From the IMG/VR virus record IMGVR_UViG_3300045963_000101: a stretch of DNA of 64,000 nt; one strand, written 5' to 3'. Positions within the stretch are counted from its first letter, which is position 1. Each line of letters starts with the position of its first letter. The notes beneath the pieces are model-generated. The model ran no database searches. It worked only from the letters and a program-made list of their open reading frames with translations, and was not told where the DNA came from. Position numbers and translations under genes: made by a program. Below are positions 36,296 through 61,543 of the stretch, one piece after another. This stretch comes from a virus.

Positions 36296-36310
36296 TATTA
36301 GGTTCCAGCT
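36296..36310 (-). promoter_or_regulatory. Putative phage-RNAP promoter, class II motif AGCTGGAACCTAATA
   Basis: One of 5 co-oriented copies; directly after the RNAP stop and upstream of nrdJ. Confidence 0.65.
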
Positions 36311-38522
36311 AACAGAAGAAGTACTTACTTTCGTTAACTTCCTTAAGGTTAAGAGAACCAGTAGCTGGTTTAGGGAAGTCGAAAGTATCTTTATGTAGCA
36401 TCAAGGTATCCATCAGGATATCAAAGAAGTTGTCTACATCGTATTGCGCTATGAACGTCATCTTAGTTACGTCTTGGAGGAAGTCTACTTCTGAAGCATG
36501 AACACTGAAGCTATCATGCACAGCAGCAAAGGAACCATTAAAGGCCACAATTGTGTTAGCCATATGAGCAGCATCATAGCTGTGTACAACGTTAGGAGAT
36601 ATGCCGCTAGCAAAACTTCTGCGGCAAGGTACTTTTTCTCCAGTCTCTTGATTGAGAACATCAACTTTGAGTACATGCATTACTCTCCCATCTTTGTTTC
36701 CGTCGATACCTTTGATGGTACCTCGTTGTTTACGCTCGTGCTGTAGAAAGGCTTTATAGACGACAGGAAAGCCGCTTGGAGTATGCCAAGATAAAGAGTT
36801 ACGACCGTTATTAAGCTCATGTTCAGCAATCTTTTGTAAGTATTTAGTTGTTTGAAGTGGTCCGGCGCAGACAGTATTGATTGCTTCAATAAGGTTCTTT
36901 GCCAGTTCACCACACATATTCTCGTTGATACTGTACTTGACAGTATACCCTTCCATATGGCAGTCATCGTACATGTTCTTTGCAATACGATTACGTCCGG
37001 CTGAATAAGCTCGAGTCATAGACCCCCGTTTAGCAATACCCTTACGGATATGCTTCATGGGGATTTTCTTTTCGGAGAACCATTCAGGCATCAGAGTGAT
37101 AAGCTCTTTTGCTACAGCCACATAGAAGTCCTTTTGAATAGGCGTGTTAGTGAGAGAAACAAGTTCACCTGCCTGAGCATCCTTGCTCATAGCTGCCAGA
37201 TGTTGCCAGCCGTTATTGCTACCATCAATAGGTACTGGAAAGCCACTCAAGCAGGGGATACCTGCCTTTTTACAATCATAGTACTTTGTAATCTCCATAC
37301 ATACAGCGAGCCAGCTATAAGGTTTTTCCGCGTAGTCCATGATCAGCTTACGGGATGAGACATCCTTGACCATATCCATATTGTGGATGACCCATTTGTA
37401 ACGATCATCGAGTGTCATCTTATCCACGGATATAGTGTCAAGACCTTCTTTCTGCAGATAGCTTATGTAGTCTGTCTCAAAGTACTTTACCAGACGAAGA
37501 TCTTCAATAGTGAAGGATCGATTAAAGCAACTGGCTGCATGAATACATAGCCAGTAGAAGCCACGCTGATCAACCACCTTCTTATTATGAAACAAGAACA
37601 GACTACGGGCCAAGTCACTACCTTGGAATTCCAGAAAGGATTCTGCATAGTATATCCTGCCACGATAATCACAGCTGACCTCCTGATAGAATGGATAACC
37701 CTTTGACTGAACTAATTCAGCCTTGCGTACTACCTGAACATACTCAAAGTATTTACTTACCAAACGCTGCAACTTAGGATCTTTCTTTCCGGCGAATGCA
37801 GTACCGTCTGTATGGGTAAGTTTCTTGGGCAGATGCAGGTTCTCATGGTGGATATTCCATTGATGAATTTCACCGTCGGCATCTACCAAGGACAGTACTT
37901 CAGGTGGTGGGTTGCTTTGGATAGCAGTTAGCAATGGGTTGTTCAGTGCCCACGGTTGCTGACGAAGAGTCTCAAGAGCCTTTACAAATGGTCTGTCGAG
38001 ATAATCATAGAAGAGTTTTCCGTTGGTCCAACCCTTGATGAAAGGTTCTTTCGTAACTGAGCTAAATAATCCTGTGATTGGTAGAGGAGGTTCAAAGACG
38101 GTACCAATAAGTGTGGGCTTAAGATCACATGTCTGATTGACGATCCGTACCATGTAGGGAGCTTTGATCCCATTGTATTCCCTGAAGATATCAATTAGAC
38201 CGTCCTGAAGAAACGTTTCGAGTAGAAGATCACCGATGGCAAGAGTAGATTTAATGTCTGATTCATCGCCACCAATAGCCCTAACCACCCGTTTGCCAAT
38301 GAGGTCACTAGCAAAGGTAAGCTTGACGGTTGCAGTAAATTTTGCATTCTTGTTTCGGATACAGTATCGGAGTAAAGTATCCCAAGCTTCGTTAATAAAT
38401 CTTTCAAGTTCATACTCCCATGTTGGATAGTGTGCTAACAAACGAGCACCTTCGTTGTAGATCTTATCTGAGTTGACTACTACTTTCTCAACTCGAGCTG
38501 TGAGATAGTCTAGTGGGTTCAT
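36309..38522 (-). CDS. T7/T3-type single-subunit DNA-directed RNA polymerase
   Basis: CDYRGRIYY, FQGSDLARSL, PIDGSNNGWQH (A), KRGSMTRAY (B), PNVVHSYDAAH, VHDSF (C). Confidence 0.95.
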   Translation of the reverse strand: MNPLDYLTARVEKVVVNSDKIYNEGARLLAHYPTWEYELERFINEAWDTLLRYCIRNKNAKFTATVKLTFASDLIGKRVVRAIGGDESDIKSTLAIGDLLLETFLQDGLIDIFREYNGIKAPYMVRIVNQTCDLKPTLIGTVFEPPLPITGLFSSVTKEPFIKGWTNGKLFYDYLDRPFVKALETLRQQPWALNNPLLTAIQSNPPPEVLSLVDADGEIHQWNIHHENLHLPKKLTHTDGTAFAGKKDPKLQRLVSKYFEYVQVVRKAELVQSKGYPFYQEVSCDYRGRIYYAESFLEFQGSDLARSLFLFHNKKVVDQRGFYWLCIHAASCFNRSFTIEDLRLVKYFETDYISYLQKEGLDTISVDKMTLDDRYKWVIHNMDMVKDVSSRKLIMDYAEKPYSWLAVCMEITKYYDCKKAGIPCLSGFPVPIDGSNNGWQHLAAMSKDAQAGELVSLTNTPIQKDFYVAVAKELITLMPEWFSEKKIPMKHIRKGIAKRGSMTRAYSAGRNRIAKNMYDDCHMEGYTVKYSINENMCGELAKNLIEAINTVCAGPLQTTKYLQKIAEHELNNGRNSLSWHTPSGFPVVYKAFLQHERKQRGTIKGIDGNKDGRVMHVLKVDVLNQETGEKVPCRRSFASGISPNVVHSYDAAHMANTIVAFNGSFAAVHDSFSVHASEVDFLQDVTKMTFIAQYDVDNFFDILMDTLMLHKDTFDFPKPATGSLNLKEVNESKYFFC

Positions 38523-38529
38523 TGATTCC

Positions 38530-38874
38530 TTAGTAAGGTATATTGTTTTCAGCTGCCCAATTGCAGAAGTCTTCAGAGTTACTTATATGACAAGTGATAC
38601 AATCGATATGTACACTTGGGTTTGCCTTACGCAAATAGGTAACCTTATTAATTTCAGTATTACAATCTTTGATTAGCCGATGGTAGTTATTCCACCAGCC
38701 AAAGCGAACATCGTCACTGTTTTCATATTTAAACCCCCAGAATTTAGCCCATTTTCCGGACTCATACTCTGCTTTATTCTTTTCATAGATGGCATCCTTA
38801 TCCGCTTGCTTTTTAGTATAGTCTACAATAAGATATTCTTGGTATGCTAACCAGTCTTGAATTCGTACTTGCAT
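38530..38874 (-). CDS. Hypothetical protein
   Basis: Coupled to the primase stop; 114 aa. Confidence 0.65.
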   Translation of the reverse strand: MQVRIQDWLAYQEYLIVDYTKKQADKDAIYEKNKAEYESGKWAKFWGFKYENSDDVRFGWWNNYHRLIKDCNTEINKVTYLRKANPSVHIDCITCHISNSEDFCNWAAENNIPY

Positions 38875-40475
38875 TATTCGAAATCCACAAATTTAGGTTT
38901 ATACAGGCGGCCTGTCTCAGGATTATAACATGTATTTCCACAGTCACCGGTCAGACCAGTGAAGCGACATTTCAATACACGAAGCTTGATAGTGTTTCGC
39001 ATCTGGACAGTCTCGGCAATCATATTGCGTGCGAAGGCAATGATGTTAAAGGAGATTTGTTTGATGGAGCCACTACCTTTGATGTCATCGATAGAAGGTA
39101 GGTCACCTTCTTCAAAGACTTTTTTATCACCCTTACGCAGGTGAGATACAACCCCAAGCCAGATGTTATGCTTTTTGACGATCTTGAGTAGGTCACTCAT
39201 GAATGCATCTACTGCTTCATTACCTGTTTTACCATTCATACCCTCAGATACAGCAATAGTAATGTGATCAAGGATAATATACTTGCAGCCCATAAGAGCC
39301 AAGTGTTCCAGCTTATCAATGAGCGATTCATCACTAACAGATCCTTGATGATCAAGTAGTATGAGTCGTTCGTCTCCGAAGACTGTTTTAAATGCTTCAT
39401 ATTGTTCCTCATCAGAGACTTCTTCAGTGGACAGGTTCTTTTTAAGTTGCATACCGATGAACTTCTGCGCGGTATCACCGACAGATTCTTCAAGGGATAC
39501 CATACCAACCATGTCGGACGTTTTGTCGAGCACTTGCATCACTATTTCTTTAATGACAGTACTCTTACCTGAGCCTGTACCGGACGTAAACAGGTCGATC
39601 TCACCAAGGCGCATACCTTTGAGCTTGTCATTGAGACCATCAAGACAGTCAGGGTAGGGCAGACTGTCGGTGTTCTTCCGGCGTTGATACTGCTCCCAGA
39701 CTTCTTCACCTTTGACTACACCCGCAGGGCTAAAGGTACGTGCATTGAATACACACATCATCAGAGCTTCAGAACCTTGTTTGATGAGCACATCACAAGG
39801 ATCTTTTTCGGGGAGGTCTGCAACCTTAACCTTATCGAAGCCAATAATCCGAGCAGCTTCTTGTGTGGCTTTCTGTCCGGGTTCATCCATGTCTAGCATC
39901 AGGACTACTTCGTCGAATGACCTCAGGAATTCTCGTTGTTCGAGGAGAAGTTTTGTGTTTGACGCTGAAGGTATGGCCACCACTGGATAGAACCTGCCAT
40001 ATTTGTCGTACTGAGCTTGAGCCACGGCGAGACAGTCCAGTTCACCTTCTGTGACGACAATTCTTTTTCCACCTGATGCAACGTTCTGGCCAAAGAGCTG
40101 TATGCCTTTGAATTCTCCGTGGATAATAAAAGACTTAGGTAGCTTACGTTCTTTATACGCAATGATTTGGTTGTCTTTAGTATACGGATAGAAATGGCTA
40201 GCAATAGTGCCGTCCTCACCATAAGATACTTTAACACCGTAATGCTTAGCGACAATCTTTTTGATGTCACGTTCTTGAAATCCGCGAGTGTCATATGAAT
40301 CAATTTCTTCTAGTGTATGCATACTATAATTTTCTTTAAATACTTTAACTGAATTAGGATCTATTGGGCTGTTCTTAGTACAACTAAAACAGTAACCCCA
40401 CTCATCCTCCTCTTTGTAGGAGAATGCGTCAGATGAGCCACACTTAGGGCATAGCGAATGGATCCATCTGCTCAT
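38874..40475 (-). CDS. DNA primase-helicase (T7 gp4-like)
   Basis: CPKC...CFSC Zn motif, TOPRIM VVTEGELD and DMDEPG, Walker A SGTGSGKST, IILDHI, IKGSGSIKQ. Confidence 0.95.
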   Translation of the reverse strand: MSRWIHSLCPKCGSSDAFSYKEEDEWGYCFSCTKNSPIDPNSVKVFKENYSMHTLEEIDSYDTRGFQERDIKKIVAKHYGVKVSYGEDGTIASHFYPYTKDNQIIAYKERKLPKSFIIHGEFKGIQLFGQNVASGGKRIVVTEGELDCLAVAQAQYDKYGRFYPVVAIPSASNTKLLLEQREFLRSFDEVVLMLDMDEPGQKATQEAARIIGFDKVKVADLPEKDPCDVLIKQGSEALMMCVFNARTFSPAGVVKGEEVWEQYQRRKNTDSLPYPDCLDGLNDKLKGMRLGEIDLFTSGTGSGKSTVIKEIVMQVLDKTSDMVGMVSLEESVGDTAQKFIGMQLKKNLSTEEVSDEEQYEAFKTVFGDERLILLDHQGSVSDESLIDKLEHLALMGCKYIILDHITIAVSEGMNGKTGNEAVDAFMSDLLKIVKKHNIWLGVVSHLRKGDKKVFEEGDLPSIDDIKGSGSIKQISFNIIAFARNMIAETVQMRNTIKLRVLKCRFTGLTGDCGNTCYNPETGRLYKPKFVDFE

Positions 40476-40625
40476 TTACTTTAGGGCTACCATAACGATA
40501 GTCCATAGGATACTTACCAGTACGTAAGCAAAAATAGGTAGGAAGACAATCCACCAAGAGATAGCTGTAAAACCAGCCAATTTAAGGGCAATAAGAATAC
40601 CAGTTGCAATAGTGTAAATGTTCAT
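40476..40625 (-). CDS. Small membrane protein (49 aa), not in ORF track
   Basis: MNIYTIATGILIALKLAGFTAISWWIVFLPIFAYVLVSILWTIVMVALK; fills the gap exactly; GAGGA RBS. Confidence 0.7.
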   Translation of the reverse strand: MNIYTIATGILIALKLAGFTAISWWIVFLPIFAYVLVSILWTIVMVALK

Positions 40626-40954
40626 TGTAGTTCCTCAAATAGGTTATCAACGCGGAATAGCTCATCTAAACAGCGTTCTTCAATTGTTCTACGCAGTGCT
40701 TTTAGGGCTAGTGTTTTAGTGCTGTAAAGCATAATAGGTCCTTGACTATCTGTTTTGCTGGTTTTGTTTATACCATGGTATACGCTGCTTGAACATGCCG
40801 GTGAAACATTATTATATCCCGCATACCATCCTACACTCAGCTCATTATAACTTGCAGGAGGGTATACATCAGGTTTTACCTCAGGTGTCAATTTAAGGGC
40901 AGCAAGTCGTTTGTATTTTTCAAGCTCTGCCTTATCTGCTTTGGTCATTGCCAT
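40622..40954 (-). CDS. Hypothetical protein flanked by 18-bp direct repeats
   Basis: GAGGA RBS; coupled at both ends. Confidence 0.7.
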   Translation of the reverse strand: MAMTKADKAELEKYKRLAALKLTPEVKPDVYPPASYNELSVGWYAGYNNVSPACSSSVYHGINKTSKTDSQGPIMLYSTKTLALKALRRTIEERCLDELFRVDNLFEELQ

Positions 40955-40973
40955 TATTGTAGTTCCTCAAATA
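40624..40973. repeat. 18-bp direct repeat ATTGTAGTTCCTCAAATA at 40624-40641 and 40956-40973
   Basis: Two identical copies read directly; both encode LFEELQ* plus the next gene's RBS. Confidence 0.85.
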
Positions 40974-41136
40974 ATGTTACGTAGTCTGTAGAAGTATTAA
41001 CAATAGCACCATCTGTCATAAAAATTTGAACACCTTTACTGGTAGGGAATATCCTGAGGATATGCATGGTATTGATCATAATACCTTCAAGACCCCATTG
41101 GTCTGCCACTTCGATAAATTTATTAAGAGTAGTCAC
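40954..41136 (-). CDS. Hypothetical protein
   Basis: GTG start with AAGGA RBS; TAATG coupling. Confidence 0.6.
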   Translation of the reverse strand: MTTLNKFIEVADQWGLEGIMINTMHILRIFPTSKGVQIFMTDGAIVNTSTDYVTLFEELQ

Positions 41137-41281
41137 GGTCTTCCTTCATTTCACGTACAAAGTTACGTCGTTGTTTGGCTTCTTGCTGGGTTTGTTTCTT
41201 GCGTTCCCATTGCTCCTTAAATTCATCCTTGATCTTGATGTATTCTTCAAGGACTTCTGGCTTGGGAGTATTCTTTTTCAT
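41123..41281 (-). CDS. Small charged protein (52 aa), not in ORF track
   Basis: MKKNTPKPEVLEEYIKIKDEFKEQWERKK...; fills the gap. Confidence 0.5.
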   Translation of the reverse strand: MKKNTPKPEVLEEYIKIKDEFKEQWERKKQTQQEAKQRRNFVREMKEDRDYS

Positions 41282-41305
41282 TAGTTGTATCCGAAAGGGT
41301 TTATC

Positions 41306-41746
41306 TTATTTGACCATTGTGACATTGCACACGGCCCTTGGTTTAAGGAACTTGACTGCGCCGATGTTCCCGTTGTACCAGAGACGTTCTCCATCAGGAG
41401 TTTCATCTCTTGATAAGACCTCTGATTGCCATTGCTCTTGGACTTCGCTATATGTGAGATCTCCTGCGCCGAAGCACCATTTGTATATAACAAAAGTAAA
41501 TGATCCAAGTCCGTACAACTCAATATCATCAAGGAGTTCCCTGCAGGAGGATGTATATGATCTCCAGTCACTTTCTTTTCGAGTAACCCTTCGTCGCTTA
41601 GATCCGGCGACGACTCTTTTTGATACAGAGACAAGTTGTTTTCTCCCTATGTATTGTCGGCCTGTTGGTCCGAAGATGGCATAAATGAAGCCGAAGCTTC
41701 CTTCAGGTCTTGGACTGAGAGCAATCCAGTGTCCGTAGTCTTCCAT
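41306..41746 (-). CDS. GIY-YIG endonuclease (Seg-like)
   Basis: GFIY...TGRQYIGRK, ESDWRSYTSS, YNGNI. Confidence 0.85.
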   Translation of the reverse strand: MEDYGHWIALSPRPEGSFGFIYAIFGPTGRQYIGRKQLVSVSKRVVAGSKRRRVTRKESDWRSYTSSCRELLDDIELYGLGSFTFVIYKWCFGAGDLTYSEVQEQWQSEVLSRDETPDGERLWYNGNIGAVKFLKPRAVCNVTMVK

Positions 41747-42462
41747 TCTAACCTTTCTTTTAATTCTTCAAACGATAATGGACGGAGGTCGTCAGGTGAC
41801 TCACGCATGTAGATCAGATTAGCGCAGACTACAAACTGCTCTTTCCATTCACGACCAATCTTATCTTGCCATACATCGCAGACTTCATCCCAAAGACATT
41901 CATCCCTAATATCGGCTAGAAGCTTTGTCGCAGTCTTAGGTCCAATGCCTTTAATGCCTTTAATATTATCTGTCGAGTCACCCTGTAGGAGCTGTTCCAT
42001 TTGGAAACGATAAGCGGTTGCATAAGGTATAGCAGTAAACAAACCACTTCGGAAGTTATGGTGCATGCCAGGAATACAATTAAGATCCTTGTCAATATGA
42101 GACACAACAAAAGTGGTCCCATCACGAATAGCGTTGTTAGCCGTAAAGCAAACATAATCATCTGCTTCAGCGTTATCAGCTTCTGCACAATAAGTCTTGG
42201 CATGTTCATACAGTTCTATGATCCTTTCTTTTACGTCCGGCTCAATGTTGTTCTTACGATTGGCCTTGTAGGTTGGTTCGTAGTCAATACGAAAGTTACC
42301 CTCACCCTTGATAAAGATAACAGTGTTATCAGGTTCATTAGCGAAGATAATTTTGTCGATGTATTGATCGAATTCTCGCTTACCTTTTGTTACAGAAGGC
42401 TGTGTATGGGCAATCTGGTAGATGATACTGTCAGCATCAATTATAAGTAGTTCTGTCGTCAT
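41647..42462 (-). CDS. 5'-3' exonuclease (T7 gp6 / FEN-like)
   Basis: IIDADS, EADD, IDKDL, GDSTDNIKGIKGIGPKTA (H3TH). Confidence 0.92.
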   Translation of the reverse strand: MTTELLIIDADSIIYQIAHTQPSVTKGKREFDQYIDKIIFANEPDNTVIFIKGEGNFRIDYEPTYKANRKNNIEPDVKERIIELYEHAKTYCAEADNAEADDYVCFTANNAIRDGTTFVVSHIDKDLNCIPGMHHNFRSGLFTAIPYATAYRFQMEQLLQGDSTDNIKGIKGIGPKTATKLLADIRDECLWDEVCDVWQDKIGREWKEQFVVCANLIYMRESPDDLRPLSFEELKERLEWKTTDTGLLSVQDLKEASASFMPSSDQQADNT

Positions 42463-42734: not shown

Positions 42735-42735
42735 A

Positions 42736-45061: not shown

Positions 45062-45187
45062 CCGAATCCTTATTAGTAAGCATATCGATATAGTTTCTCT
45101 GATTGTGTCGTAGTTGAATGATCACCTGAGTAAGTGACCAGTTCTCCCAGAGCATATACGCAAGAGCAAAGCATAGGTATAGTTCCA

Positions 45188-46168: not shown

Positions 46169-46585
46169 TCATTTGGCAATCTTTGGAAGTGGAAACGGAA
46201 CTTTAGAGACGTCTTGGCAACGACCGTCATCTCCGGCGTAAGATTTCTTTTGGAAGTCGTCATCAAGCAGACAGCCTACAGAGCCTGATACTGTAGAACA
46301 TTTCAATCCTACTTTTTGTGCAGGATTATCTTTGCTAATTAGTTTGACTGAACCCCAACCGTCACCTTGAGGGCATTCCGGTGACATAGTAGAGTCTGTT
46401 TGGGCAACAATAGCGGTGTTACTGTATTGTGGGTTTGTTGCACGGAAGGTTTGTGCGTTGAACTCTACGTTAGCTTTACTCTGAGCACGAGCTGTTTCAA
46501 GGGTATCGAAGGATACCTTATCAGGGCCACATGCAGAGAGAATTACAGCGAGAATAGAAGCGAAGATTACTTTAGTGAATGTCAT
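46169..46585 (-). CDS. Lipoprotein of unknown function
   Basis: Signal peptide with lipobox LSA-C; four further Cys; AAGGA RBS. Confidence 0.75.
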   Translation of the reverse strand: MTFTKVIFASILAVILSACGPDKVSFDTLETARAQSKANVEFNAQTFRATNPQYSNTAIVAQTDSTMSPECPQGDGWGSVKLISKDNPAQKVGLKCSTVSGSVGCLLDDDFQKKSYAGDDGRCQDVSKVPFPLPKIAK

Positions 46586-46613
46586 TTAAATTTCCTTGTG
46601 TCGGGTTGATTGG

Positions 46614-46628
46614 TACTAGGTTCCGGCT
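46614..46628 (-). promoter_or_regulatory. Putative phage-RNAP promoter, class II motif AGCCGGAACCTAGTA
   Basis: Co-oriented copy at a gene end, about 30 nt upstream of the lipoprotein start. Confidence 0.65.
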
Positions 46629-46924
46629 AACTCTTTGATGACCTGCAAGGTACTGCCAAGGTACCATGTGCCACCCTGCGATTCTGGTCGTTGCAGGGTT
46701 TTCATGTGGGTGAATTTTACTTGACACCATACACGATTCTTTTTGCTGAGATGTGGTGCAACTGCTTTATCGCAGATATGCCATCCGGCTCTTACTGCAT
46801 ATCCTTTTGTGGGATGTAGTTCGAAGGGATACTCTACGCCCATTTCAATAACTTGTCGTTTGTTAATGAAGAGAGGTCCAAGAGTACCGTTCTTACGTTT
46901 ACGAAATAGTTTGTAGCCTATCAT
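46616..46924 (-). CDS. Conserved hypothetical phage protein
   Basis: GYKLFR...LGPLFIN...HPTKGYAVRAGWH...APHL motif. Confidence 0.75.
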   Translation of the reverse strand: MIGYKLFRKRKNGTLGPLFINKRQVIEMGVEYPFELHPTKGYAVRAGWHICDKAVAPHLSKKNRVWCQVKFTHMKTLQRPESQGGTWYLGSTLQVIKELAGT

Positions 46925-51004: not shown

Positions 51005-51005
51005 A

Positions 51006-51702: not shown

Positions 51703-51905
51703 TAGTGTGTTTCTGAGTTAAGAGATTCAATTTTAATTACAGGAGTGTTAACAGAGAAATGGTGTATTTGACCAATATCATCATAGCAAACGGAATACAT
51801 ACCGTCAAGATGATCAAGGAAAAATATTTCTTGATGTTCATGATTGAGTAGTTCTCCGTTGTCTATCTTGAAATGGTTCATTCGAGGTAATTCATAGAGT
51901 TTCAT
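51702..51905 (-). CDS. Hypothetical protein
   Basis: Coupled small ORF. Confidence 0.65.
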   Translation of the reverse strand: MKLYELPRMNHFKIDNGELLNHEHQEIFFLDHLDGMYSVCYDDIGQIHHFSVNTPVIKIESLNSETH

Positions 51906-52285
51906 CAGAATTCCTTTTCAATGGACAGGTGTAGTGCAGAAGCTCCAAAAGGGTTATAAGCAAGAGTTAGTCGGGTGAAGCCGATTTTAATGCTTGGTAG
52001 TACTGTTGGTACAGGATACTCTCGATACCCTGACATGAGGACATAGCTGAAGTCAACGTAGCGAGTAGTTTGTGTGGCTCCGAGATAGAAAGTCTGTTGC
52101 CGGACGCTATTGTAGTAGGTTCCGGCTGTGAATCCGTTGTTAGACCTATAGTAGACTCCGGGATTATCATTGTTATAACTTTCTTGGTCGTGGATGCTGC
52201 TAAGGTGCAACCCTATGGTGTCAGAATGGGACGTCTTCAAAAGACCCATTAAGCACAGACTGAATATCAGCAGCAGCTTGTACAT
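51905..52285 (-). CDS. Putative outer-membrane beta-barrel protein
   Basis: Start reassigned to ATG 52285 (GAGG RBS); signal peptide, alternating aromatic strands, YNNDNPG and YYNS motifs, C-terminal LSIEKEF with terminal Phe. Confidence 0.7.
   Translation of the reverse strand: MYKLLLIFSLCLMGLLKTSHSDTIGLHLSSIHDQESYNNDNPGVYYRSNNGFTAGTYYNSVRQQTFYLGATQTTRYVDFSYVLMSGYREYPVPTVLPSIKIGFTRLTLAYNPFGASALHLSIEKEF
52113..52127 (-). promoter_or_regulatory. Putative phage-RNAP promoter, class II motif AGCCGGAACCTACTA (intragenic)
   Basis: Exact consensus match, co-oriented, upstream of the nucleotide-metabolism cluster. Confidence 0.55.
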
Positions 52286-52454
52286 ATTGACCTCGCTTGT
52301 AAGTTTTACCAGTGATACCGGCGGCTGCATTGAGCATATTGGTGGGGGTATACATGCGGTTAGCTTTCATACCTGTTTCTGCGTAGAGAATCAGGGCATG
52401 TTTGATAACGACTGCACGATAACGAGCTACTTGTGGATTAATCGACATATTCAA
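52221..52454 (-). CDS. Hypothetical protein
   Basis: GAGG RBS; overlaps the next gene's start. Confidence 0.6.
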   Translation of the reverse strand: MNMSINPQVARYRAVVIKHALILYAETGMKANRMYTPTNMLNAAAGITGKTYKRGQYVQAAADIQSVLNGSFEDVPF

Positions 52455-52608
52455 CTACCTCGTAACGATATATAAGAGTTGGGAATCTTTTCTTTTGTTC
52501 AATGACGAATTTTACGGCAGATTCTTTAAACTTAAATACTTTTTCTACGCATTCAGGTTCATCTTCACCGTAATTCTCTTGGCTTACAACAACAAAGACA
52601 TTAGTCAT
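52438..52608 (-). CDS. Hypothetical protein
   Basis: Start reassigned to ATG 52608 (AAGGA RBS). Confidence 0.6.
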   Translation of the reverse strand: MTNVFVVVSQENYGEDEPECVEKVFKFKESAVKFVIEQKKRFPTLIYRYEVVEYVD

Positions 52609-52966
52609 CAGAATCCTTTTGATATGGCCTATAGATATACAACTTACATTGCTTGGCTGTACAGTTAGTGATGTCACTTCGGATATCACCGACACAACTA
52701 TTGCAGAAGTTTTTGATAGCTTGCATTGGCGATGTACGCTTTTGAAGCTTCTTCATTTCTTGCTCTTCTTTCCATGCTTCAAGAAACTTACCGCCTTTCT
52801 TCTCGGCGTAGGCTTTCTCTTTACGCCATTGAGCGAGTCCCGCCTGAGCCTTATCAATGACTTCTTGCGGTGGTCCTTTACGCTTAGTAACCCTCAAGCA
52901 CCCTGTCTTTACGGTCTTGATAGATTTGCTCGGCGCGATCGTATTTTGCGTTTTTACAGATTTCAT
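52601..52966 (-). CDS. Basic protein with C-terminal Cys4 zinc-finger-like motif (start uncertain)
   Basis: SPMQAIKNFCNSC...NCTAKQCKLYIYR. Confidence 0.65.
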   Translation of the reverse strand: MKSVKTQNTIAPSKSIKTVKTGCLRVTKRKGPPQEVIDKAQAGLAQWRKEKAYAEKKGGKFLEAWKEEQEMKKLQKRTSPMQAIKNFCNSCVGDIRSDITNCTAKQCKLYIYRPYQKDSDD

Positions 52967-53171
52967 CTTGGAGTTCGATGAGAGTTTCTGAGATGCGGTC
53001 AATGGTTGCTTGGTTGAGGATTTCAATAATATTGATTTTTTCATGGTATACACCGTTAATGATAATCTCTGCGGGATATCCGGGATCGTCGTATGTCATT
53101 TCCTCTTCAGGTGAGTAGTCGTATTCGACATCTAGCTCGATGTCCCATATGGTGATATTATAATTAGCCAT
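52884..53171 (-). CDS. Acidic hypothetical protein
   Basis: GAGG RBS; TAATG coupling. Confidence 0.65.
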   Translation of the reverse strand: MANYNITIWDIELDVEYDYSPEEEMTYDDPGYPAEIIINGVYHEKINIIEILNQATIDRISETLIELQDEICKNAKYDRAEQIYQDRKDRVLEGY

Positions 53172-54813
53172 TAAAATTCTTCCTCAATTGTTACTTTGAA
53201 GCCAAGTTCTTCTAGGATGATTTTCCATTTTTCAGTTTGGTTATCTTCTTGGTTGATAAAGAAGTATTTATCTTTGTTGTAACGCACAGAGATACCGTCA
53301 CATGCAAGACCTAATTCAATTTCTTTTTTATTACTCATTTGGCATACTCATTGCTTGGATCATCAGTTGCAGAGACTGCACGATAATCATTTGGCGTTGT
53401 GGATGGAGTTCATTCCATGGTGGTTGTGGTGAAGGCCACTTGGCGCATACTGCTGTGTAGAATCGTTCGACATCACTCATAGTAGATTTCCTCGTGGTTC
53501 TTTAAGTTTAATACTTTACGGGCGTACGCCAATTTACCTTCTTTGTTGAATTCTATCAAAGTACTGTTTGTCCAATACCACACGGTTTCAATTTTCCACC
53601 AGAATAGTATTTTCTTTTCTAGGTAGATTTTCTCTTGTAGATTCCCTACTCGAATCCTGTATTTGCTCTGCATACCATTTATCCAGTATATATTTGGAGT
53701 CAAGTCGAGTGATGAACCATCGCGCAAGACCTCGACTATAATCTTGCGAAAGACCGTTATCCCAGCCTGTTACCAGTAGATGTTTGATTTTGACCATACA
53801 ACAAAGCGTGCCATCAGGGTTGAAGCTCTTTCTTTTGCTTTTTCCAGAGCTTCTTGTTTTGATTCTCCGCTGCCATCTCTATCATAGTAATAGTCAGAAT
53901 CACGTTTCCACCACAGACCATACCACTTTTTGTATTCAAGTATATACTTGTCTTCGAGTGGAGAGTGTATTATGCGGGTTTCTTCGAATATACTCATAGG
54001 TATTTATCCCCAAGATATCGTCCGGCGTTGAATGCTATACTGACTGCATGCCAGATAAAACCTATAAGGATGATTGGTGCGAAGATTATTGTAAGGACAT
54101 TTTGTTTATTCATATCATCTCCGGATTACGACTTGGTACGCAAATGATTTGCTTGACACCTTTTTCTTCTTTGCTGATACTACCCATGGCTTTACCCACA
54201 GCCAAGCATAGACGTTCGGACTCGAACATTCCGGCTGGCATCCAACCAAAGTATTCTTTGCCGGACTGAGCATTAACTGTGATTAATTGGAAAACTAGAA
54301 GCAGGTACATAATGTGAGTTCTCTGTGTAGAATTGACCGTCAGGAAATACTTCGATTACGGGTGTTGTTAAGGCTACTACTGTGTTAGAACATTCAGGAT
54401 GGTTGAATGGGAAGACCAATGCACGTTCACCACTGCGGATGAACGGTGACTTTTCAGGATTGTAATACACTGTTTTCATTATCGACAATTCCTGCGGCAG
54501 ACTTGGATAGCTTCATTACGCGGATAGCATAACGAAGACGTCGGGCTTTGTCTTTACCGAATGCAATACGCTCTTTGACTTCTTTATATCGTTCAAAGTA
54601 GTATCCTGTTGCTACGGGTTTAGACTTATCAGCACCGGCCCAATAGAGACCTGCAAAGTATTTATCAATGCATAAGTTGTATTCTACTTCTTTCAGCTCT
54701 TTGATCAGGGCGTTATGTGCCAGAGAGAATACAGAGTGGAACTTAGCGTCTTTCATATTAGTCCTTTGAAATTTTGAGGTCAACACTTTCAGAGTAGTAA
54801 CCGTTGGATTCAC
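53171..54813 (-). other. Cluster of small hypothetical ORFs (53171-53338, 53473-53727, 53588-53797, 53770-53997, 54110-54310, 54273-54488, 54454-54813)
   Basis: Tightly packed minus-strand ORFs with RBS and overlap coupling; some starts uncertain. Confidence 0.55.
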
Positions 54814-55201
54814 CTAACCAGCGTAATGTCACAGAACCTTTGATGGTACGAAACTCGTAGAATGTCCATGTGTGGCTGTCTATATACTTACTTGGCGGGT
54901 TGTCCTCGTTACAGCGTTCTTCGGCAAGCAAGATTGGCGTGTTTAGTAGGTCATTAAGATTTCCGGTGATGTCTTCTAGGAATACATTTTCGCAACAAGC
55001 TTGTTCGTGATAGAATTTGAAGGTAAAACCGTCAGTTGATTTGAAGCAGATCTCACTATTGTTAAATTCACCAGTGATTTCATTGAATGTACGTCCTACC
55101 ATTTCTTGAAGATCGTTTTCAGTTGTGAATCCTATTTCATCTTTTTTGTCTGAGTGGTAGATATTGATTTTGCGATAATTCTCATCTTTAATTAGCATTT
55201 T
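54758..55201 (-). CDS. Conserved phage protein
   Basis: FYHEQACCENVFLEDI.G...DL...TWTFY.F.T.KG.V..RW.GESNGYYSE family motif; likely start ATG 55201 (AAGGA RBS). Confidence 0.75.
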   Translation of the reverse strand, partial: KMLIKDENYRKINIYHSDKKDEIGFTTENDLQEMVGRTFNEITGEFNNSEICFKSTDGFTFKFYHEQACCENVFLEDITGNLNDLLNTPILLAEERCNEDNPPSKYIDSHTWTFYEFRTIKGSVTLRWLGESNGYYSESVDLKISKD

Positions 55202-55217
55202 GTGTCCTTTGATAACT

Positions 55218-55249
55218 GGAAAAGAAAACCCCAAGTGTTACCTTGGGGT
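55218..55249 (-). terminator. Intrinsic terminator after ssb
   Basis: Minus strand ACCCCAAG-GTAACA-CTTGGGGT followed by TTTCTTTT. Confidence 0.8.
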
Positions 55250-55263
55250 GTATATTCTATGGA

Positions 55264-55824
55264 TTAGAATGGGATGTCGTCTTCATCTTGTTCGTCAGCT
55301 GCTGGTTTTGCCTTACTTTTTGCAGCTGCCTTTTTAGCAGGAGCAGGACTATCTTCCATGTCAAAGTCAGTGAAGTTTTCACCACCGGACTTTTCGAAGA
55401 TGACCAGATTAGTAACCTGTACTGCAGTCAGCATTGTTTGAGTGCCTGACTTAGTTACTTTACCAGTCTTAGGGTGCTTGATTTCATAGTCTTTGAGCAT
55501 CAGCATGACATTACCAGTAGAACCATTGCCGATAGACTTACTGTCCATAGGCTCTTTAGCACTATCAACTACACGGACTTTAGCCGCTGGACTACCATCA
55601 GCCTTCTCAGACTTTTTGCGGAAGTTGATTGAGACGGTACCATCATCCTGTTCTTTGATTTTACCAAACTCTTCCAGTTCAGCCTTACGCTTTTTGGGTA
55701 CACGCACTTGAATTTCCCATTGTTGGGCATCTCCGGCGAAGTTGTCTACTGGCTTATCCAGCTTGGCCCAAAAGAGGGTTACATTTTTGAGGATGACATT
55801 ACGGGGTTCGAATTGATTTGACAT
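55264..55824 (-). CDS. ssb: Single-stranded DNA-binding protein (T7 gp2.5-like)
   Basis: LFWAKL, VQVTNLV, acidic tail DEQDEDDIPF; likely start ATG 55824. Confidence 0.85.
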   Translation of the reverse strand: MSNQFEPRNVILKNVTLFWAKLDKPVDNFAGDAQQWEIQVRVPKKRKAELEEFGKIKEQDDGTVSINFRKKSEKADGSPAAKVRVVDSAKEPMDSKSIGNGSTGNVMLMLKDYEIKHPKTGKVTKSGTQTMLTAVQVTNLVIFEKSGGENFTDFDMEDSPAPAKKAAAKSKAKPAADEQDEDDIPF

Positions 55825-55934
55825 TGATTTGCTTTCAGAAGGACGTTGAGTGAGAGTTTTAGGAGAGAAACGAGTGTTAGAAGTAACCATGATTTAGACG
55901 GAGCCTTAAAGATATATTTTACAAAGGATTAAAA

Positions 55935-56324
55935 ATGAAAGTATCACCTAACTCGCTTAAGAACCTCAAATTGATTACTTCGGAGACTGCTCGTGAGAAT
56001 CAAAAGAAGTCAGTACAGAGTCGGCTGTTAAATCTTGAACTGCAACAACAATTTAAGGTTACAGCTAAAGCATTTATGAAGATCAAAGAAGATCTTCCAG
56101 ACATTACGGCATTGGATATATTAAAGATGGCTATGCACTTGGCTCTCCAAGAAGATAAGATGGATGATGCTGCAAGATATGCTGCTCAGATTGCAGAGTA
56201 TGAACAACCTAAGCTTCAACGGATAGACCAGTCAGTTACGACTAAGACCGCTGACCTCTCTGATGAAGAGCTTTTGGCTATCATTGAGCAGGAAGGCTTG
56301 CAGAAGATTCCTAATGAAGAATAA
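55935..56324 (+). CDS. Putative terminase small subunit
   Basis: NLKLITSETARENQKKS N-terminus, AEYEQPKL, DLSDEELLAII; AAGGA RBS; only + gene in the - arm. Confidence 0.6.
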   Translation: MKVSPNSLKNLKLITSETARENQKKSVQSRLLNLELQQQFKVTAKAFMKIKEDLPDITALDILKMAMHLALQEDKMDDAARYAAQIAEYEQPKLQRIDQSVTTKTADLSDEELLAIIEQEGLQKIPNEE

Positions 56325-56338
56325 TCAGTAGGAATTCT

Positions 56339-56420
56339 TAAAGGTATTTAATGATTTATTGTTATTAATTACCTTTATAATCCTTATAAGGATATCCTAA
56401 AGAAGAATTAATCTTTAGGA
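56339..56420. other. AT-rich cluster of overlapping inverted repeats/palindromes
   Basis: Hairpin 56339-56377, perfect palindrome ATCCTTATAAGGAT, AGGATATCCT, and TCCTAAAGA/TCTTTAGGA. Confidence 0.75.
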
Positions 56421-56426
56421 AGTCCC

Positions 56427-56441
56427 TATTAGGTACCGGCT
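56427..56441 (-). promoter_or_regulatory. Putative phage-RNAP promoter, class II motif AGCCGGTACCTAATA(GGGA)
   Basis: Intergenic exact copy pointing toward ssb and the replication genes; followed by GGGA as in T7-type initiation sites. Confidence 0.7.
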
Positions 56442-56446
56442 AGGAT

Positions 56447-59400
56447 TCACTTGTAGAAGTCTGCGATGGAAAGCTCTTTTAGTACTACAGCTTGCTTACG
56501 TTTTAACACAACTTGATTATAGTATCGTTTTACAGCTTCTTTTGGAACCTTTAATTTTACGATACGATGGTTTGCCTGTAGATTTATTTCTAAGTCTGGT
56601 TTGGGCCACCAATGCTTGAAGTCCTTTTTAGTTGCAGTACCGCAGACTTCATCTGACCGGACACCTGCATCAGGCACCGGATGTGTGTTTGAGTTGGACC
56701 ATTTGCTTGGGTGATGGTAACAACCTTTGTTCATTTGTTCTTTTGTGTTACGTCTTTCAAGTCTGTAGACTATTGGCATATTACAGTCCTTTTAAGTTTT
56801 CCATAATTTTTTCTGCGTACCAATCCCAAATTATTTCAGGCTCCTGTACGAAGGGTGATGCAGAATACCTATAAGGATCTCCTTGGAAGGTCAAGCCATA
56901 GGATCGCCCCCCGAATGCATTATTGTAAGCAGTAATAAGAACGCACCGAGGATTGTCTCCCAATTCATTGTCAGAGTCACCATTATAGTATCCTTGATTC
57001 TTGATTAGGTTGTCTGCAAACTCTTTATCGACTGTTGCCATAATTGTTTACCTTTTTGCTTCCAATAAATTTATCGTTGATGTAGAACTTTTGTACACCT
57101 GTTTCAGGATCATACACAACACGCTTCATTCCAAGGAATTCTACGAGTGATGTACGCTTAACTCTGGCGATGAGTTCGTCGTAGATTTGTTTAGCTGTAC
57201 TCATATTTTCTCTACATTAAGTAGTTCCCCATTGTCATTGAAGGTATAGCACACATTAGGTTTTCCTTTACGATTAAGTTCTACAATGGAATCATCACCA
57301 CGATAGCTTACACGGCGATATTTGTAGATGACTTTAACAGCAATCCTGAACTTGTATTCTGGATTGGACAATCGATGAATGTCTTTGGCATCGTAGAAGT
57401 TTTCTACGTTAAACCAGAAGATATTATCCATAGACCATTGTACAGGCTCACCAAGAAGATACTTCTCGACGAGGTTTGGATGCATTGCATCATATTCGGT
57501 GTATTCAGGGATCATTTGCGCTCGGTCTCTGTTAAGGTTAGGTCACCATCAAGAAGTTTGATATACTCGCTAAATTCTACTTCACAGCTTTCTTGTAGCT
57601 CCTCATAGATATGTGTTGCAAGTTTACGCCAATAGCCGTGACCACCGATAGAGCCTATAGCAGCTGCGATAAGAATAGCTTCGTCATGGGTTATCTTGAT
57701 GGTATGAGAGTATTCTTTGACCGTATTAATGTGTTTCATTATATAAGAAAATAAATAAAGGATGTTGTAGGAGACACCGTTTGAAGGGTGTCATTACCAT
57801 GGGTATGTTAACGTCCTGCGAGAGCTTCTCGGATGTTATCTAGGGTATCTCGCAGGATTTTGTAATTGGCTCCTTCTTCTGTTTCATCTGTTATGAGTTT
57901 TGGGATGGTCATGTTCCATGAACACATATCTTTGAAGAGTTTGATTTCCTTTTCAGTCTGGAAAGTAATTTGTAGAGTTACTGGTTGGAAGTCTACATTT
58001 GTTGCTTTTACAATAGTTGTTTTCATATGATTAGTCTTGGTTAGAAATTGTTACGGAGATGTTGCAGTCAGGATCTTTCCACAGATACCATCGTTTGAAG
58101 TACTCTATGCTACCATGGGCTAAGCCACATGTATCATCTACTCTGAAGTAGCCATAAGCATTGAGCAGTGCATAGGATACTGCACCGGAGTCTGTTTCCA
58201 TTACTTCAATCCACTTCAGTAAAGGTGGTTCACCGGAGTTCCATTGTGGTTTATTTACTTTGTTATTTTTGATGAGGGTTGTTTTTGCGAATGCCATACG
58301 ATTATCCTATGAGAGTGATGGAGAGTTCTTTGTCGGGAATGATGTATTTGTAATTTTCTTTGAAAAATTCCTTAGATGAGTAGGTGACTTCTTTGCCGGA
58401 GTTCTCTACGTATACGACACCATAGGGACTTACTAGCGCATAACATTGTAGTTCGGAGTTGTCTTTACGACGTGCTATGTGCCAACCAAACTTTTTCGGA
58501 TACCATTGTTCAGCATCATGCCATACGGGTGAACCTTCAGGGTCAGGAATAAGAGCTTTCATTAGGAGTTTACCTTTCGAGTGAGTTCAGACATGAGAAG
58601 TAGGGCGAATACACGATGGTTTTTCTTTCTGGTACATGCTCCTTTAGAGTCGGAAGCAAGACTTCCGAACCAGTATGATATTCCAGTGTCTGGTTTGAAG
58701 TAGTCTGCAAACATACTTGTAGCATTAAGATATTTACTCATTTCAGGAATCACTTCATCAAGAGCGTAACATCCTGCATTATGCCACCATTTATCTGATA
58801 TGTCGAAATGGGTAACACTATTAAATACATTTTCAGCAGCTTTGAGGTAAGATTTAGTCAATGACACAATCATATACTCCTGTGTATTCAAGAACAATAC
58901 CATCAAACTCGTTGTTAGAGCAGAGGCTTTCGAGAAGCTCTACTGTTGGTGCAGTAGCATAGATGATGGTTTCACCGTTGACGTCTTTGGCAATGATATG
59001 ACCGCAACCTTGATCAGTCAAAGCAGTAGTTATTTGCTTGTTAGACATGTCATAGTCAGAACCCTTGATGGGTGTTAATAGAATGAATTTCATTACAGTT
59101 CTCCTACAGTTACAAAAGATTTAACAATACGAACATCATGGTATAGACTTTTAAGGCACTTTTCATCTATTTCATTTTGAACAAATGAGACGTTTATACA
59201 AGGTCCAGCAATCAGGGTGATACAGCGATTGTCATAGAATGATGCTGCAAAGTAGAGTTCTTGAACAGACACATGTGTACCTTCTTCAATAAGACGTGCC
59301 ATAGTAATGCTCCTTTTCTTCTGTACTGATTTTAACCATAAGATAGGTTATGATTGATGAGTAGATAACGATACACGCTACAGCCAGAGTCCAGTGTAGG

Positions 59401-59887
59401 ATACCCGCTTGGTGTCCTTCAATGATGTTTAACAGTGTCATGAATACCATTGTATTGATAAAGGTGATACATGAGAGTACCAGTGATAAGAGGTATGTCA
59501 TGATTAAAGATCCCTTGCAATTTGATCAGCCAACTGTTTGAATGACCAGCCATTATCATTGAGAGCTGGAATGAACATATCACTGGGACGCATTCCTTCT
59601 ATTGTTTCAAAATAGAGGTTTGGTGATCCAGCCACATCAACGAGACCAGCCCATACTAGGACGTCTAGTGGAGGCATTTCGTCGGACTCACCATTAAGGC
59701 TTTTGAATGATGGTCCACAGTGGAGTATAGGGTCTTCTATCCAACGTCCATGATCTGTTTCTTTTGCATACAGATCACATAGTACACCTAAACAGCAGAA
59801 ACCGTTATTGTTGAGATATTCACGGCCCTGTTTGTATTCGCCTGAGCGAAGAGCCTTGAGCCAGAGGCCTTTGATACGTTTGTCCAT
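56447..59887 (-). other. Early-region cluster of small hypothetical ORFs (56447-56779, 56781-57041, 57201-57515, 57512-57739, 57808-58026, 58031-58297, 58302-58562, 58562-58906, 58854-59093, 59093-59302, 59286-59501, 59504-59887)
   Basis: Contiguous co-oriented 60-130 aa ORFs with SD sequences; 59504-59887 has the common phage motif WLKALRSGEYKQG...CCLGVLCD. Confidence 0.7.
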
Positions 59888-59926
59888 GATAGGATGTCCT
59901 TTAGATTGTATTAGACAAGCTAATAC

Positions 59927-60043
59927 TTAGTAGATGATTACGATGAAGTCTTGTGCTGAATATCTGTTCAGATCACTGGGACCGGCATAGAGAGGGAGTT
60001 TGTCGATGATATCTCCGGAAGCACGAGAGATGATGTAGTACAT
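59927..60043 (-). CDS. Small hypothetical protein (38 aa)
   Basis: TAAGGA RBS; downstream of the class I repeat. Confidence 0.45.
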   Translation of the reverse strand: MYYIISRASGDIIDKLPLYAGPSDLNRYSAQDFIVIIY

Positions 60044-60101
60044 AGGATTTCCTTATGGAATGAGACGTTGATGAGATAACATGGAACTTACCCCATGTAA
60101 G

Positions 60102-60127
60102 GGTCTCTCTGTGAACCTGAGAAAGGT
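60102..60127 (-). promoter_or_regulatory. Class I 26-bp early repeat, copy 1 (putative hairpin promoter)
   Basis: GGTCTCTCTGTGAACCTGAGAAAGGT; 24/26 identical to 60495-60520; intergenic. Confidence 0.65.
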
Positions 60128-60194
60128 AGCATTGACAAGCTGATCACCCGCAACGACATCTGCCAAATATCGTCCTTCGCCGGAATCTCCGTGA

Positions 60195-60437
60195 TCAGTC
60201 TGGATAGTACAGTCCATCGTCGTAATCACTGCACATATCCTGCGCGATGATCTCTGCGCGTTCATCTATGCAGTCTTCCTTTGTGAGGAATGCTGGCGAG
60301 ATGTAGCAGTTGGTATCTCTATTGTAGACTACCCAAGGACGTCCTGCGAAAATATCCTGCGTGTGATACCATTCAAAGTTCTTCGCAATGACTTCTTCGC
60401 GGTGTACCACCACTAGGTGGGCATATGGTGAGTCCAT
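60195..60437 (-). CDS. Early hypothetical protein
   Basis: Start reassigned to ATG 60437 (CAGGAG RBS). Confidence 0.65.
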   Translation of the reverse strand: MDSPYAHLVVVHREEVIAKNFEWYHTQDIFAGRPWVVYNRDTNCYISPAFLTKEDCIDERAEIIAQDMCSDYDDGLYYPD

Positions 60438-60494
60438 GATGGATCTCCTGTGAAGGTTAATGGAATGTTCTGCACAGTACATACCCTGTGCTAT

Positions 60495-60520
60495 GGTCTC
60501 TCTGTAGACCTGAGAAAGGT
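60495..60520 (-). promoter_or_regulatory. Class I 26-bp early repeat, copy 2 (putative hairpin promoter)
   Basis: GGTCTCTCTGTAGACCTGAGAAAGGT; intergenic, upstream of the 60437 gene. Confidence 0.65.
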
Positions 60521-60532
60521 GTCTTGCAGAGC

Positions 60533-60916
60533 TTATCCCTTGCAGATGTCGTAGAACCACTTGTCAGGGCTGAAACCACCAGCTGCCATGAAGCAGACAA
60601 CAGTCTCTGAGTCCTTAGCTGCCTTGAGTGTAGCATACAACTCGTTAGCATACTGAGTGCTTGGCAAGCGATCGACCTTGCACACCCTTACATTACCGTC
60701 TTCTCCGATCACACGGATCTCACGCTTTGCAATGTCCTTCTGAACCAAGAGAATGGCTTGTGGCTCACTATACTTGGTTGCTGCCTGAGGAGCACGGCAA
60801 GAGAACACAACTTCTTTCTTATCAGTGAAGTTTTGTTCAGCTTGCTTGCCATTAGCTGCAGCAAGGATCTCACCCATTTGGGCGAACGAGAGAGTGTTAG
60901 CGATAGAACGTGCCAT
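60533..60916 (-). CDS. Early hypothetical protein
   Basis: TAGGAG RBS; 127 aa. Confidence 0.8.
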   Translation of the reverse strand: MARSIANTLSFAQMGEILAAANGKQAEQNFTDKKEVVFSCRAPQAATKYSEPQAILLVQKDIAKREIRVIGEDGNVRVCKVDRLPSTQYANELYATLKAAKDSETVVCFMAAGGFSPDKWFYDICKG

Positions 60917-61063
60917 GAGATTTCTCCTAGTTGGCGTTTAGTAGTAACGATACCAGCGTTAGAATGCAAAGACGCACTCTGATATGCCCAATCGAGCATA
61001 TCGGAATGTTGTCTCTTCAGGTCGTATTGGCAACATACTTGCGGTATGTCGCACAGACATTTA

Positions 61064-61297
61064 TCACAGAATGAACGTATCTTGGATACGGTTGTAATCA
61101 TTCCTAGACAGAATGCCAACACTGTAAGCCTTCCACAACAGATTGGCAGGTGATGGAGGAAGAGCACCGAGATTACCAGGATGCACCTCAGCCAACACCA
61201 AGTCAATCGCTGTTACAACGTCGTCCCAGCAGCGGTCTGTTGCTGCGGTAGAACGGCGAGCGTTGTAGTAGGCTTGAGCTGTCGTACGGAGAATCAT
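61064..61297 (-). CDS. First early gene (77 aa), hypothetical
   Basis: Start reassigned to ATG 61297 (TAGGA RBS); the upstream part of the track ORF is low-complexity antisense sequence. Confidence 0.6.
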   Translation of the reverse strand: MILRTTAQAYYNARRSTAATDRCWDDVVTAIDLVLAEVHPGNLGALPPSPANLLWKAYSVGILSRNDYNRIQDTFIL

Positions 61298-61528
61298 GAT
61301 GTATCCTAAAAGAACACAGCAAAGGTGCTGCCAGTACGACCCGAAGCGGGTGCCGCCCACCAACCAGCGAGCGCCCCAAGAAAGACAGGGGGCACCCAAA
61401 ACAAACAAGGCGAACCCAAATAACACAAAAGATTTTTCCACACACAAAGAGAAGGGCACCCCAAAGAAATTCTCCCAAAAATTCATTTTCAAAAATTATT
61501 ATCTATGAATTTTCAGGGTATACTGCCC

Positions 61529-61543
61529 AGCCGGTACCTACTA
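61529..61543 (+). promoter_or_regulatory. Putative late promoter, class II motif AGCCGGTACCTACTA
   Basis: Intergenic exact copy about 50 nt upstream of terL, at the head of the structural arm. Confidence 0.72.

Follow-up and report, generated by a model that had tools for sequence, protein, structure and literature searches.

The DNA analyzed here, IMG/VR virus record IMGVR_UViG_3300045963_000101 (64,000 nucleotides; "the window" below means this whole stretch), is the genome of an uncultured wetland phage with a GC content of 42.8%, about 0.8 kb short of a full circle when set against a 64,134-bp relative. Its genes are arranged in two convergent arms. The plus arm holds the virion genes, beginning with terL at 61596 and running on through 1-32374. 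The minus arm extends from 61492 down to 32420 and encodes small early open reading frames (ORFs), a gp2.5-like single-stranded DNA-binding protein (SSB), a PagP-like barrel, PolA, a primase-helicase, a T7-like RNA polymerase (RNAP) and nrdJ. Both arms carry copies of a short motif, AGCYGGWACCTANTA. Judging from its sequence, placement and conservation, the motif is very probably the promoter of the phage's T7-like RNAP, used for middle and late genes alike. The strong copies and their proposed reader are listed here, with scores in bits from the weight matrix described below.

61528-61545, plus strand: copy preceding terL, where the late arm begins, C-AGCCGGTACCTACTA-AG; 23.5 bits; exact match at 61529-61543
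56426-56442, minus strand: copy matching the consensus best, T-AGCCGGTACCTAATA-GG, with the maximum score of 30.3 bits; exact match at 56427-56441
52112-52128, minus strand: intragenic copy in the PagP-like outer-membrane barrel gene (51905-52285), where it reads F-T-A-G-T-Y-Y; exact match at 52113-52127
46613-46629, minus strand: copy holding the stop codon of ORF 46616-46924; exact match at 46614-46628
36295-36311, minus strand: copy overlapping the RNAP stop codon TAG and preceding nrdJ; exact match at 36296-36310
21329-21346, plus strand: sixth strong copy, AGACGGTACCTAATA, inside gene 21254-21835; 26.2 bits
36309-38522, minus strand: T7-like single-subunit RNAP of 737 aa, the proposed reader of the motif; Pfam PF00940, E 1.7e-54

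The window contains five exact matches to AGCYGGWACCTANTA, and 100 dinucleotide-preserving shuffles contain 0. A one-mismatch copy, AGACGGTACCTAATA, lies at 21330-21344 (+), and at 2-3 mismatches the matches are at background (19 found vs 13.9 expected). A position weight matrix was built from 34 family sites in six complete genomes, namely the window and five complete IMG/VR relatives. It sets apart six sites in the window, with scores of 22.7 to 30.3 bits; the next best site reaches 14.2 and the best in 20 shuffles 19.0. All six are oriented as the genes downstream of them. An earlier note on this DNA, made by reading the letters, had listed the five exact copies with their strands and the one-mismatch copy, and had placed the 36296 copy before nrdJ, the 61529 copy before terL, the 52113 copy within a gene and the 56427 copy so as to cross an ORF antisense. 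The scan recovers all of these. The note also had the 56427 copy running on as ...CTAATAGGGA, and the flanks confirm this.

The terL copy occupies the gap between divergent genes and ends 52 nt short of the ATG. The best-consensus copy begins 5 nt past the stop of ORF 56447-56779 and reads antisense via ORF 55935-56324 to the SSB gene. Directly 3' of it, the leader 56370-56425 (-) could fold into a pair of hairpins, CCTAAAGA...TCTTTAGG and ATCCTTATAAGGAT; read on the opposite strand, these palindromes come after the stop codon of ORF 55935-56324. The 46614 copy stands 28 nt before ORF 46169-46585, which heads the PolA/primase-helicase/RNAP block, and has an ortholog at 7727 in G001, the relative closest at hand in what follows (80-90% nucleotide identity). 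Positional orthologs of all six window sites are present in that genome. The intragenic 52113 copy, for which chance occurrence is negligible, has an identical counterpart there at 2679. The 21330 copy, 500 nt before three giant ejection-type genes (21845-32374), recurs as an identical 15-mer at 32391 (-), with a synonymous change beside it. Downstream of the 36296 copy, nrdJ most likely starts at 36261 rather than at the ATG of the longest ORF (36291). The former is preceded by AAGGAAAT, lies 34 nt after the motif and gives MNSYQE... as in the relatives; the latter follows the motif by just 4 nt.

The consensus given in the earlier note captures a real motif and is drawn too narrowly: any base is accepted at positions 3 and 8, A or T at 12, and one more base is conserved on each side. 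Over 97 distinct clade sites the family consensus is ~17 bp long and reads T-AG-N-Y-GG-W-N-CCT-A/T-N-TA-[G/C, never T]; the duplex word carrying it, written out, is TAGCCGGTACCTAATAGGGA. Position 13 also takes any base, position 7 is T or A, and the T at position 12 is occasional. G5, G6, C9, C10, T11 and A15 are invariant. In the 34 aligned copies, information content is limited to one upstream T, the 15-mer and the next base, G or C. Among the 97 sites this last base is most often G (57), then C (34) or A (6), and never T; three bases beyond it an A is found in 78. The idea that the motif is part of a longer dispersed repeat was rejected, since no conservation extends beyond motif positions 0-20. 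Consistent minus-arm and plus-arm sequence classes were also sought and discarded; the initial bases (ATAG[A/G] or ATACC) are fixed per orthologous site and not by arm. The T7 promoter consensus is TAATACGACTCACTATAG. If +1 is placed at position 16 of the motif, the word runs from -16 to +1 and matches the T7 consensus at -15, -12, -11, -7, -3, -2, -1 and +1. A literature search for the motif string returned unrelated primers and plasmids only.

Conservation was followed through an RNAP search that yielded 61 IMG/VR loci with 57-97% amino-acid identity. A same-strand gene follows all 41 sites in the six complete genomes, and the RNAP strand carries 68 of the 69 distinct sites in the 61 RNAP-centred loci. 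Each complete relative has 6-9 copies. Intergenic sites make up 2-5 of 6-8 per genome (binomial p 2.5e-2 to 3e-6 vs ~5% non-coding DNA, a figure from an ORF call made generous on purpose). At genes that follow closely, 9-60 nt separate the end of the motif from the start codon, and an AAGGA-type ribosome-binding site lies within this stretch. Three positions are occupied in 6/6 genomes: before terL, after the RNAP gene, and 470-625 nt upstream of the SSB gene. In the alignment upstream of terL the motif block is the sole conserved part. A copy of at least 17 bits lies 1-52 nt past the RNAP stop in 34/40 distinct relatives, and the controls (reverse strand, gene interior) all score below 8 bits. 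This copy is kept even where an insertion shifts it ~50 nt downstream, and the surrounding intergenic DNA diverges. The earlier note had named conservation in related phages as a check, and position is indeed conserved in about 60 relatives while the flanks diverge. A sister clade (54.6% GC, RNAP ~57% identical) has six co-oriented copies of AGYYGGNNCCTA with a variable 3' end.

Regulator sites, too, can take the form of short, conserved intergenic words with an orientation, and many copies contain the palindrome GGTACC in their core. The motif might then be an operator, an activator site or a sigma-like promoter, bound by a regulator or by host RNAP redirected by a phage factor. We regard this as very improbable. 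The variants GGAACC, GGTTCC and GGTGCC break the palindrome, and the word is asymmetric over 17 bp, with no -35/-10 or -24/-12 layout. Strict co-orientation and the fixed distance to start codons suit a promoter better than an operator. No Sigma70_r2 domain is found in the five complete relatives, and sigma-70-like sites are not enriched (39 found vs 48.5 expected; 28 vs 45.1). The copy that serves an intron ORF, described below, also speaks against a regulator site.

Some copies overlap the stop codon of the preceding gene. The RNAP stop TAG falls on motif positions 0-2 and the stop of ORF 46616-46924 on positions 11-13, and such different registers argue against a translation-linked role. 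They count as well against a function in RNA, in which the motif would be a processing or cleavage site, or a 5' untranslated region element, of long polycistronic transcripts. Processing sites are likewise strand-specific and lie between genes, and primary and processed ends are indistinguishable without 5'-end chemistry. The distance to the start codon, however, ranges from 9 to >500 nt, no conserved secondary structure is seen, and the motif matches no Rfam family. In addition, the plus arm begins with the 61529 copy, and no transcript on that strand is expected to come from further upstream. An RNA-level role therefore appears exceedingly unlikely.

Further support for a promoter comes from relatives in which the RNAP gene is interrupted. 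In L049, L052, L053, L054 and L056 the gene is split by ~735 nt (11312-12047 in L053) after ...PIDGSNNG and before WQH. The insertion is a group I intron at catalytic motif A (Rfam RF00028, 88.8 bits vs a gathering score of 50, E 3.5e-23). Right after the catalytic core comes a motif copy, AGCCGGTACCTAATA, or AGCCGGTCCCTAATA in L054, and 10-25 nt further on stand a ribosome-binding site and the start codon (ATG) of a 161-aa ORF. The N-terminus of this ORF is GIY-YIG-like by eye, and its PHROG endonuclease matches are weak (E about 0.03). A selfish intron ORF needs its own expression signal. This is how a promoter would be used, whereas neither a processing site nor an operator would be expected in such a role. 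The window's own RNAP gene is intron-free. The T4 intron endonuclease genes (td, nrdB, sunY) reportedly have internal promoters of their own, as Gott et al. are said to have described in 1988. The two cases share a group I intron in an essential phage gene and, in the relatives, an endonuclease-like ORF behind the phage's promoter-type signal. They differ in that the interrupted gene here is that of the RNAP, and the signal is a putative promoter of a single-subunit RNAP, not one of the middle or late promoters read by host RNAP.

The 737-aa RNAP is the natural candidate for a reader. One PF00940 polymerase gene is present in each of the five complete relatives. The window's enzyme aligns with T7 RNAP residues 415-883 (phmmer) and retains the motif A aspartate in DGS..QH, the K and Y of motif B in KR..MT.aY, and HDSF. 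It is ~25-27% identical to Autographiviridae RNAPs. Its specificity-loop segment can be placed between the SGFPV and SGI.PN..HS.D motifs. The segment, LQHERKQRGTIKGI.GNKDGRVMHV, is nearly invariant across the motif-sharing clade and quite different in the Roseobacter phage CRP-7.

The main competitor among polymerases is a putative N4 virion RNAP-like enzyme of 1205 aa encoded at 28757-32374, which would read the motif after being injected or newly made. In its favor, the T7-like RNAP gene is downstream of three copies, and its first transcription needs another polymerase. We nevertheless consider this assignment highly unlikely. N4-type enzymes use DNA hairpin promoters, and single-strand DNA folds of the six copies reveal no shared hairpin, with 4/6 folding no better than shuffles. 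One copy directly precedes terL and the virion genes, which is unexpected for an injected early enzyme. Moreover, when the window is compared with G002-G004, genomes with the same motif core, the candidate protein shows no detectable similarity (phmmer), whereas the T7-like enzyme and its loop are conserved. The gene, last of the giant genes, is hypervariable: it is 32% identical to its G001 counterpart while most of the genome is 80-97% identical. A phmmer search of its product against PDB found nothing. Finally, the early region 61492-56780 has no motif copy and possesses its own 26-bp repeat instead. This repeat occurs in exactly two copies with 2 differences (60102-60127 and 60495-60520), and no third is found within 7 mismatches in the whole window.

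Co-conservation of the loop, the lack of a hairpin and the copies before late genes together assign the motif to the T7-like RNAP at 36309-38522 over the putative virion RNAP; from the sequence we infer both binding by this enzyme and the start site. Comparable guesses have fared well elsewhere, as promoters picked as repeated sequences upstream of ORFs worked for 8/9 phage RNAPs tested (PMC12272871). A non-random, oriented and consistently placed motif is conserved alongside a polymerase of the cognate type. The earlier note had proposed one phage-RNAP promoter class driving middle and late genes, a view that gains support from co-orientation, intergenic enrichment, positional conservation, occurrence on both arms, the T7-like layout and the intron copy.

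In the proposed mechanism, the RNAP would bind the conserved upstream half (AG.YGG..CC) via its specificity loop and melt the A/T-rich ...TANTA end. RNA would begin at the invariant A15 or at position 16 (G or C, never T). The unit starting at P56441 would cross the 129-aa ORF (55935-56324) antisense, continue into the SSB gene and stop at the hairpin 55249-55228. P52127 would serve the genes below 51905; P46628 would serve PolA, the primase-helicase and the RNAP itself; and P36310 would drive nrdJ and extend to the terminator between the arms. On the plus strand, P61529 would transcribe terL and the virion genes, with P21330 as a booster for the three giant ejection genes. Middle and late genes would thus share one polymerase and one promoter class, an arrangement found in T7 but not in N4. 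Three copies are upstream of the RNAP gene (in CRP-7, one of its own copies is directly before it), which suggests self-amplification after a first dose made by another polymerase.

Several observations weigh against this interpretation. The N-terminal region of the 737-aa RNAP is ~140 aa shorter than that of T7 RNAP and cannot be aligned, so contacts with the upstream part of the promoter are not inferable. About one third of family sites have C at position 16, an unusual initiating base; the exact +1 is accordingly uncertain, with A15 an equally good candidate. Since the RNAP gene is preceded by its own putative promoters, the first enzyme must come by a separate route. With an identical motif ahead of both middle and late genes, the sequence does not explain temporal control. 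Two of the six strong copies are within coding sequence, and these two have so far been found in no genome but the window and its close relative G001. Among the sequencing runs listed as matching 52001-62000 or the capsid gene there is no RNA run; all are wetland or pond DNA, and two of them may come from the source sample.

Apart from the strong copies, the window contains two weak variants of the motif, a conserved small ORF next to one of them, and two hairpins that bear on the ends of the proposed units.

55896-55910, plus strand: degenerate variant AGACGGAGCCTTAAA; 10.5 bits, which is chance level on its own
15090-15104, plus strand: another weak variant, AGTCGGAGCCTTATC, within the gene of the 1353-aa protein; gene 15658-17196 follows ~570 nt further on
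55935-56324, plus strand: 129-aa ORF running against the minus arm in which it lies, conserved at 45-95% identity across six genomes (tblastn, alignment)
55228-55249, minus strand: terminator-like hairpin, an 8-bp stem and then a T run, directly 3' of the SSB gene
32383-32412, no strand assigned: hairpin with a 13-bp stem between the convergent arms

Both weak variants contain CGGAGCCTTA and may be attenuated promoters. The 15090 variant is kept in G001 at 37357 (-), and in G002, G003 and G004 strong copies closely precede the ortholog of 15658-17196. The 55896 variant sits between the divergent starts of the SSB gene (55890) and ORF 55935-56324. At this place G001 has AGCTGGTACCTTAAA, and full-strength copies are found in G002, G003, G004 and G005. 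From this comparison the 55896 variant is probably a weak or decayed promoter for the 129-aa ORF.

In the relatives with full-strength copies, head-on motif pairs ~500-600 bp apart bracket the ~130-aa ORF: 53261/53788 in G002, 22986/23533 in G004, 49917/50513 in G003 and 8422/7855 in G005. The ORF's own copy is decayed (CCTTAAA) in the window and in G001. To arrive at the SSB gene, transcription from the minus-arm copy must first pass through the entire ORF antisense. The ORF itself has no Pfam or PHROG function. The earlier note had reported the weak variant at 55896 (+) as preceding a putative terS; the variant is there, and the terS label has no support from hidden Markov models, neither Pfam nor PHROGs backing it and Atlas giving a weak 14% DUF5681 lead only. 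As for the hairpins, the one at 55228-55249 probably ends the short unit begun at 56441, and the one at 32383-32412 is a probable bidirectional terminator for both motif-driven arms.

Other features of the genome can be mentioned briefly. There are two sets of in-frame coding tandem repeats on the plus strand, one with a 66-nt period at 12700-14033, within the 1353-aa tail-type protein, and one with a 33-nt period at 63723-63943, in an ORF starting at 63531. The 'direct terminal repeats' that IMG/VR records for G001 (127 bp) and G004 (57 bp) are short and at unrelated genome positions; they look like overlaps of circular assembly rather than true ends. Megablast of 56000-64000 against the phage collection gave no match.

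The motif provides a concrete promoter-polymerase pair for the widespread, uncharacterised CRP-7-type group, which is present in freshwater, wetland and marine samples, and it allows the genome to be divided into transcription units. The group would then differ from N4 in using a phage polymerase for late genes. The 737-aa RNAP and its 17-bp promoter, unrelated in sequence to those of T7, T3 and SP6, are also a candidate orthogonal transcription tool; recent work mines such RNAP-promoter pairs (PMC12272871, PMC13029058). The intron copy and the convergent pair are natural experiments in promoter recruitment and in the tolerance of head-on transcription by single-subunit RNAPs.

A broader picture can be sketched for the CRP-7-type clade, although on balance we lean away from it. 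Its members may follow a hybrid N4/T7 programme independent of host RNAP, in which a compact injected RNAP opens the early region. The short T7-like RNAP would then read one 17-bp promoter for middle genes, late genes and its own gene, forming an autocatalytic loop, and the conserved head-on pair around the small opposite-strand gene would act as an antisense or collision switch.

CRP-7 (MK613349; L082/L083) is the nearest cultured relative, with an RNAP 31% identical over 99% of its length. It shares the two-arm layout: one arm carries PolA, primase and RNAP, and the structural arm ends in three giant genes. The window motif is absent from CRP-7, which has an 18-mer of its own, TAGTCCNYTATTAAAAGG, identified from a reading of its intergenic regions. 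This word occurs in five exact copies, all intergenic and co-oriented and spread over both arms.

2027, 7148 and 14765 in CRP-7, plus strand: copies of the 18-mer
38262 and 57212 in CRP-7, minus strand: copies of the 18-mer

One of these copies is 10 nt before the RNAP gene. The 18-mer and the window motif have in common a TAGTC start and a TAA.AGG end; the center of the word differs, as does the specificity-loop segment of the RNAP. The 18-mer is a candidate RNAP promoter. A de novo candidate in CRP-7, GAAACAAATGC, with six copies, was rejected because it is a repeat within the coding sequence of a tail gene. Promoters are not described in the CRP-7 paper (PMC6918029). A literature search for promoters of the CRP-7 group, or for the window motif, found no description of either.

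N4 offers a second comparison. Its virion RNAP uses hairpin promoters, RNAPII has its own middle promoters, and host RNAP transcribes the late genes. The hairpin promoter has a 5-7 bp stem and a 3-nt loop on the template strand and carries conserved bases; RNAPII is a gp15+gp16 heterodimer whose promoter is a short A/T-rich start region. The window genome resembles N4 in its convergent arms, in an early region with its own distinct repeat and in the putative second, virion-associated polymerase. It differs in that the motif is a long specific word with no hairpin and is also found ahead of terL and the virion genes, a set left to host RNAP in N4. In addition, the middle-type polymerase is one uninterrupted 737-aa ORF, and its splits in relatives are due to the group I intron and not to two subunit genes.

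The closest agreement is with the promoters of the T7 family (T7, T3, SP6, K11, KP34, Syn5). In both cases, a short (~17-23 bp) asymmetric duplex word occurs in several near-identical copies that are co-oriented and mostly intergenic, and has an A/T-rich ...TA end followed mostly by G. A phage-encoded PF00940 polymerase with a specificity loop is the reader, putatively so in the window, and one enzyme serves DNA-metabolism and virion genes. Some copies are inside genes (2/6 in the window), and T7 class II promoters also lie inside gene 4. Unlike the T7 family, the window has a new promoter sequence and a distant 737-aa polymerase with a shortened N-terminal region. Its genes are on two convergent arms and not on one strand, its promoters are upstream of the RNAP gene itself, and its genome encodes a second, putative virion-type RNAP. 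In every feature tested the motif is a T7-type promoter with a new sequence and a distant polymerase, and as such an expected kind of element. More unusual are the use of one single-subunit RNAP promoter class on both arms of a phage that possibly injects a second RNAP, the convergent pair, and the copy carried by an intron.

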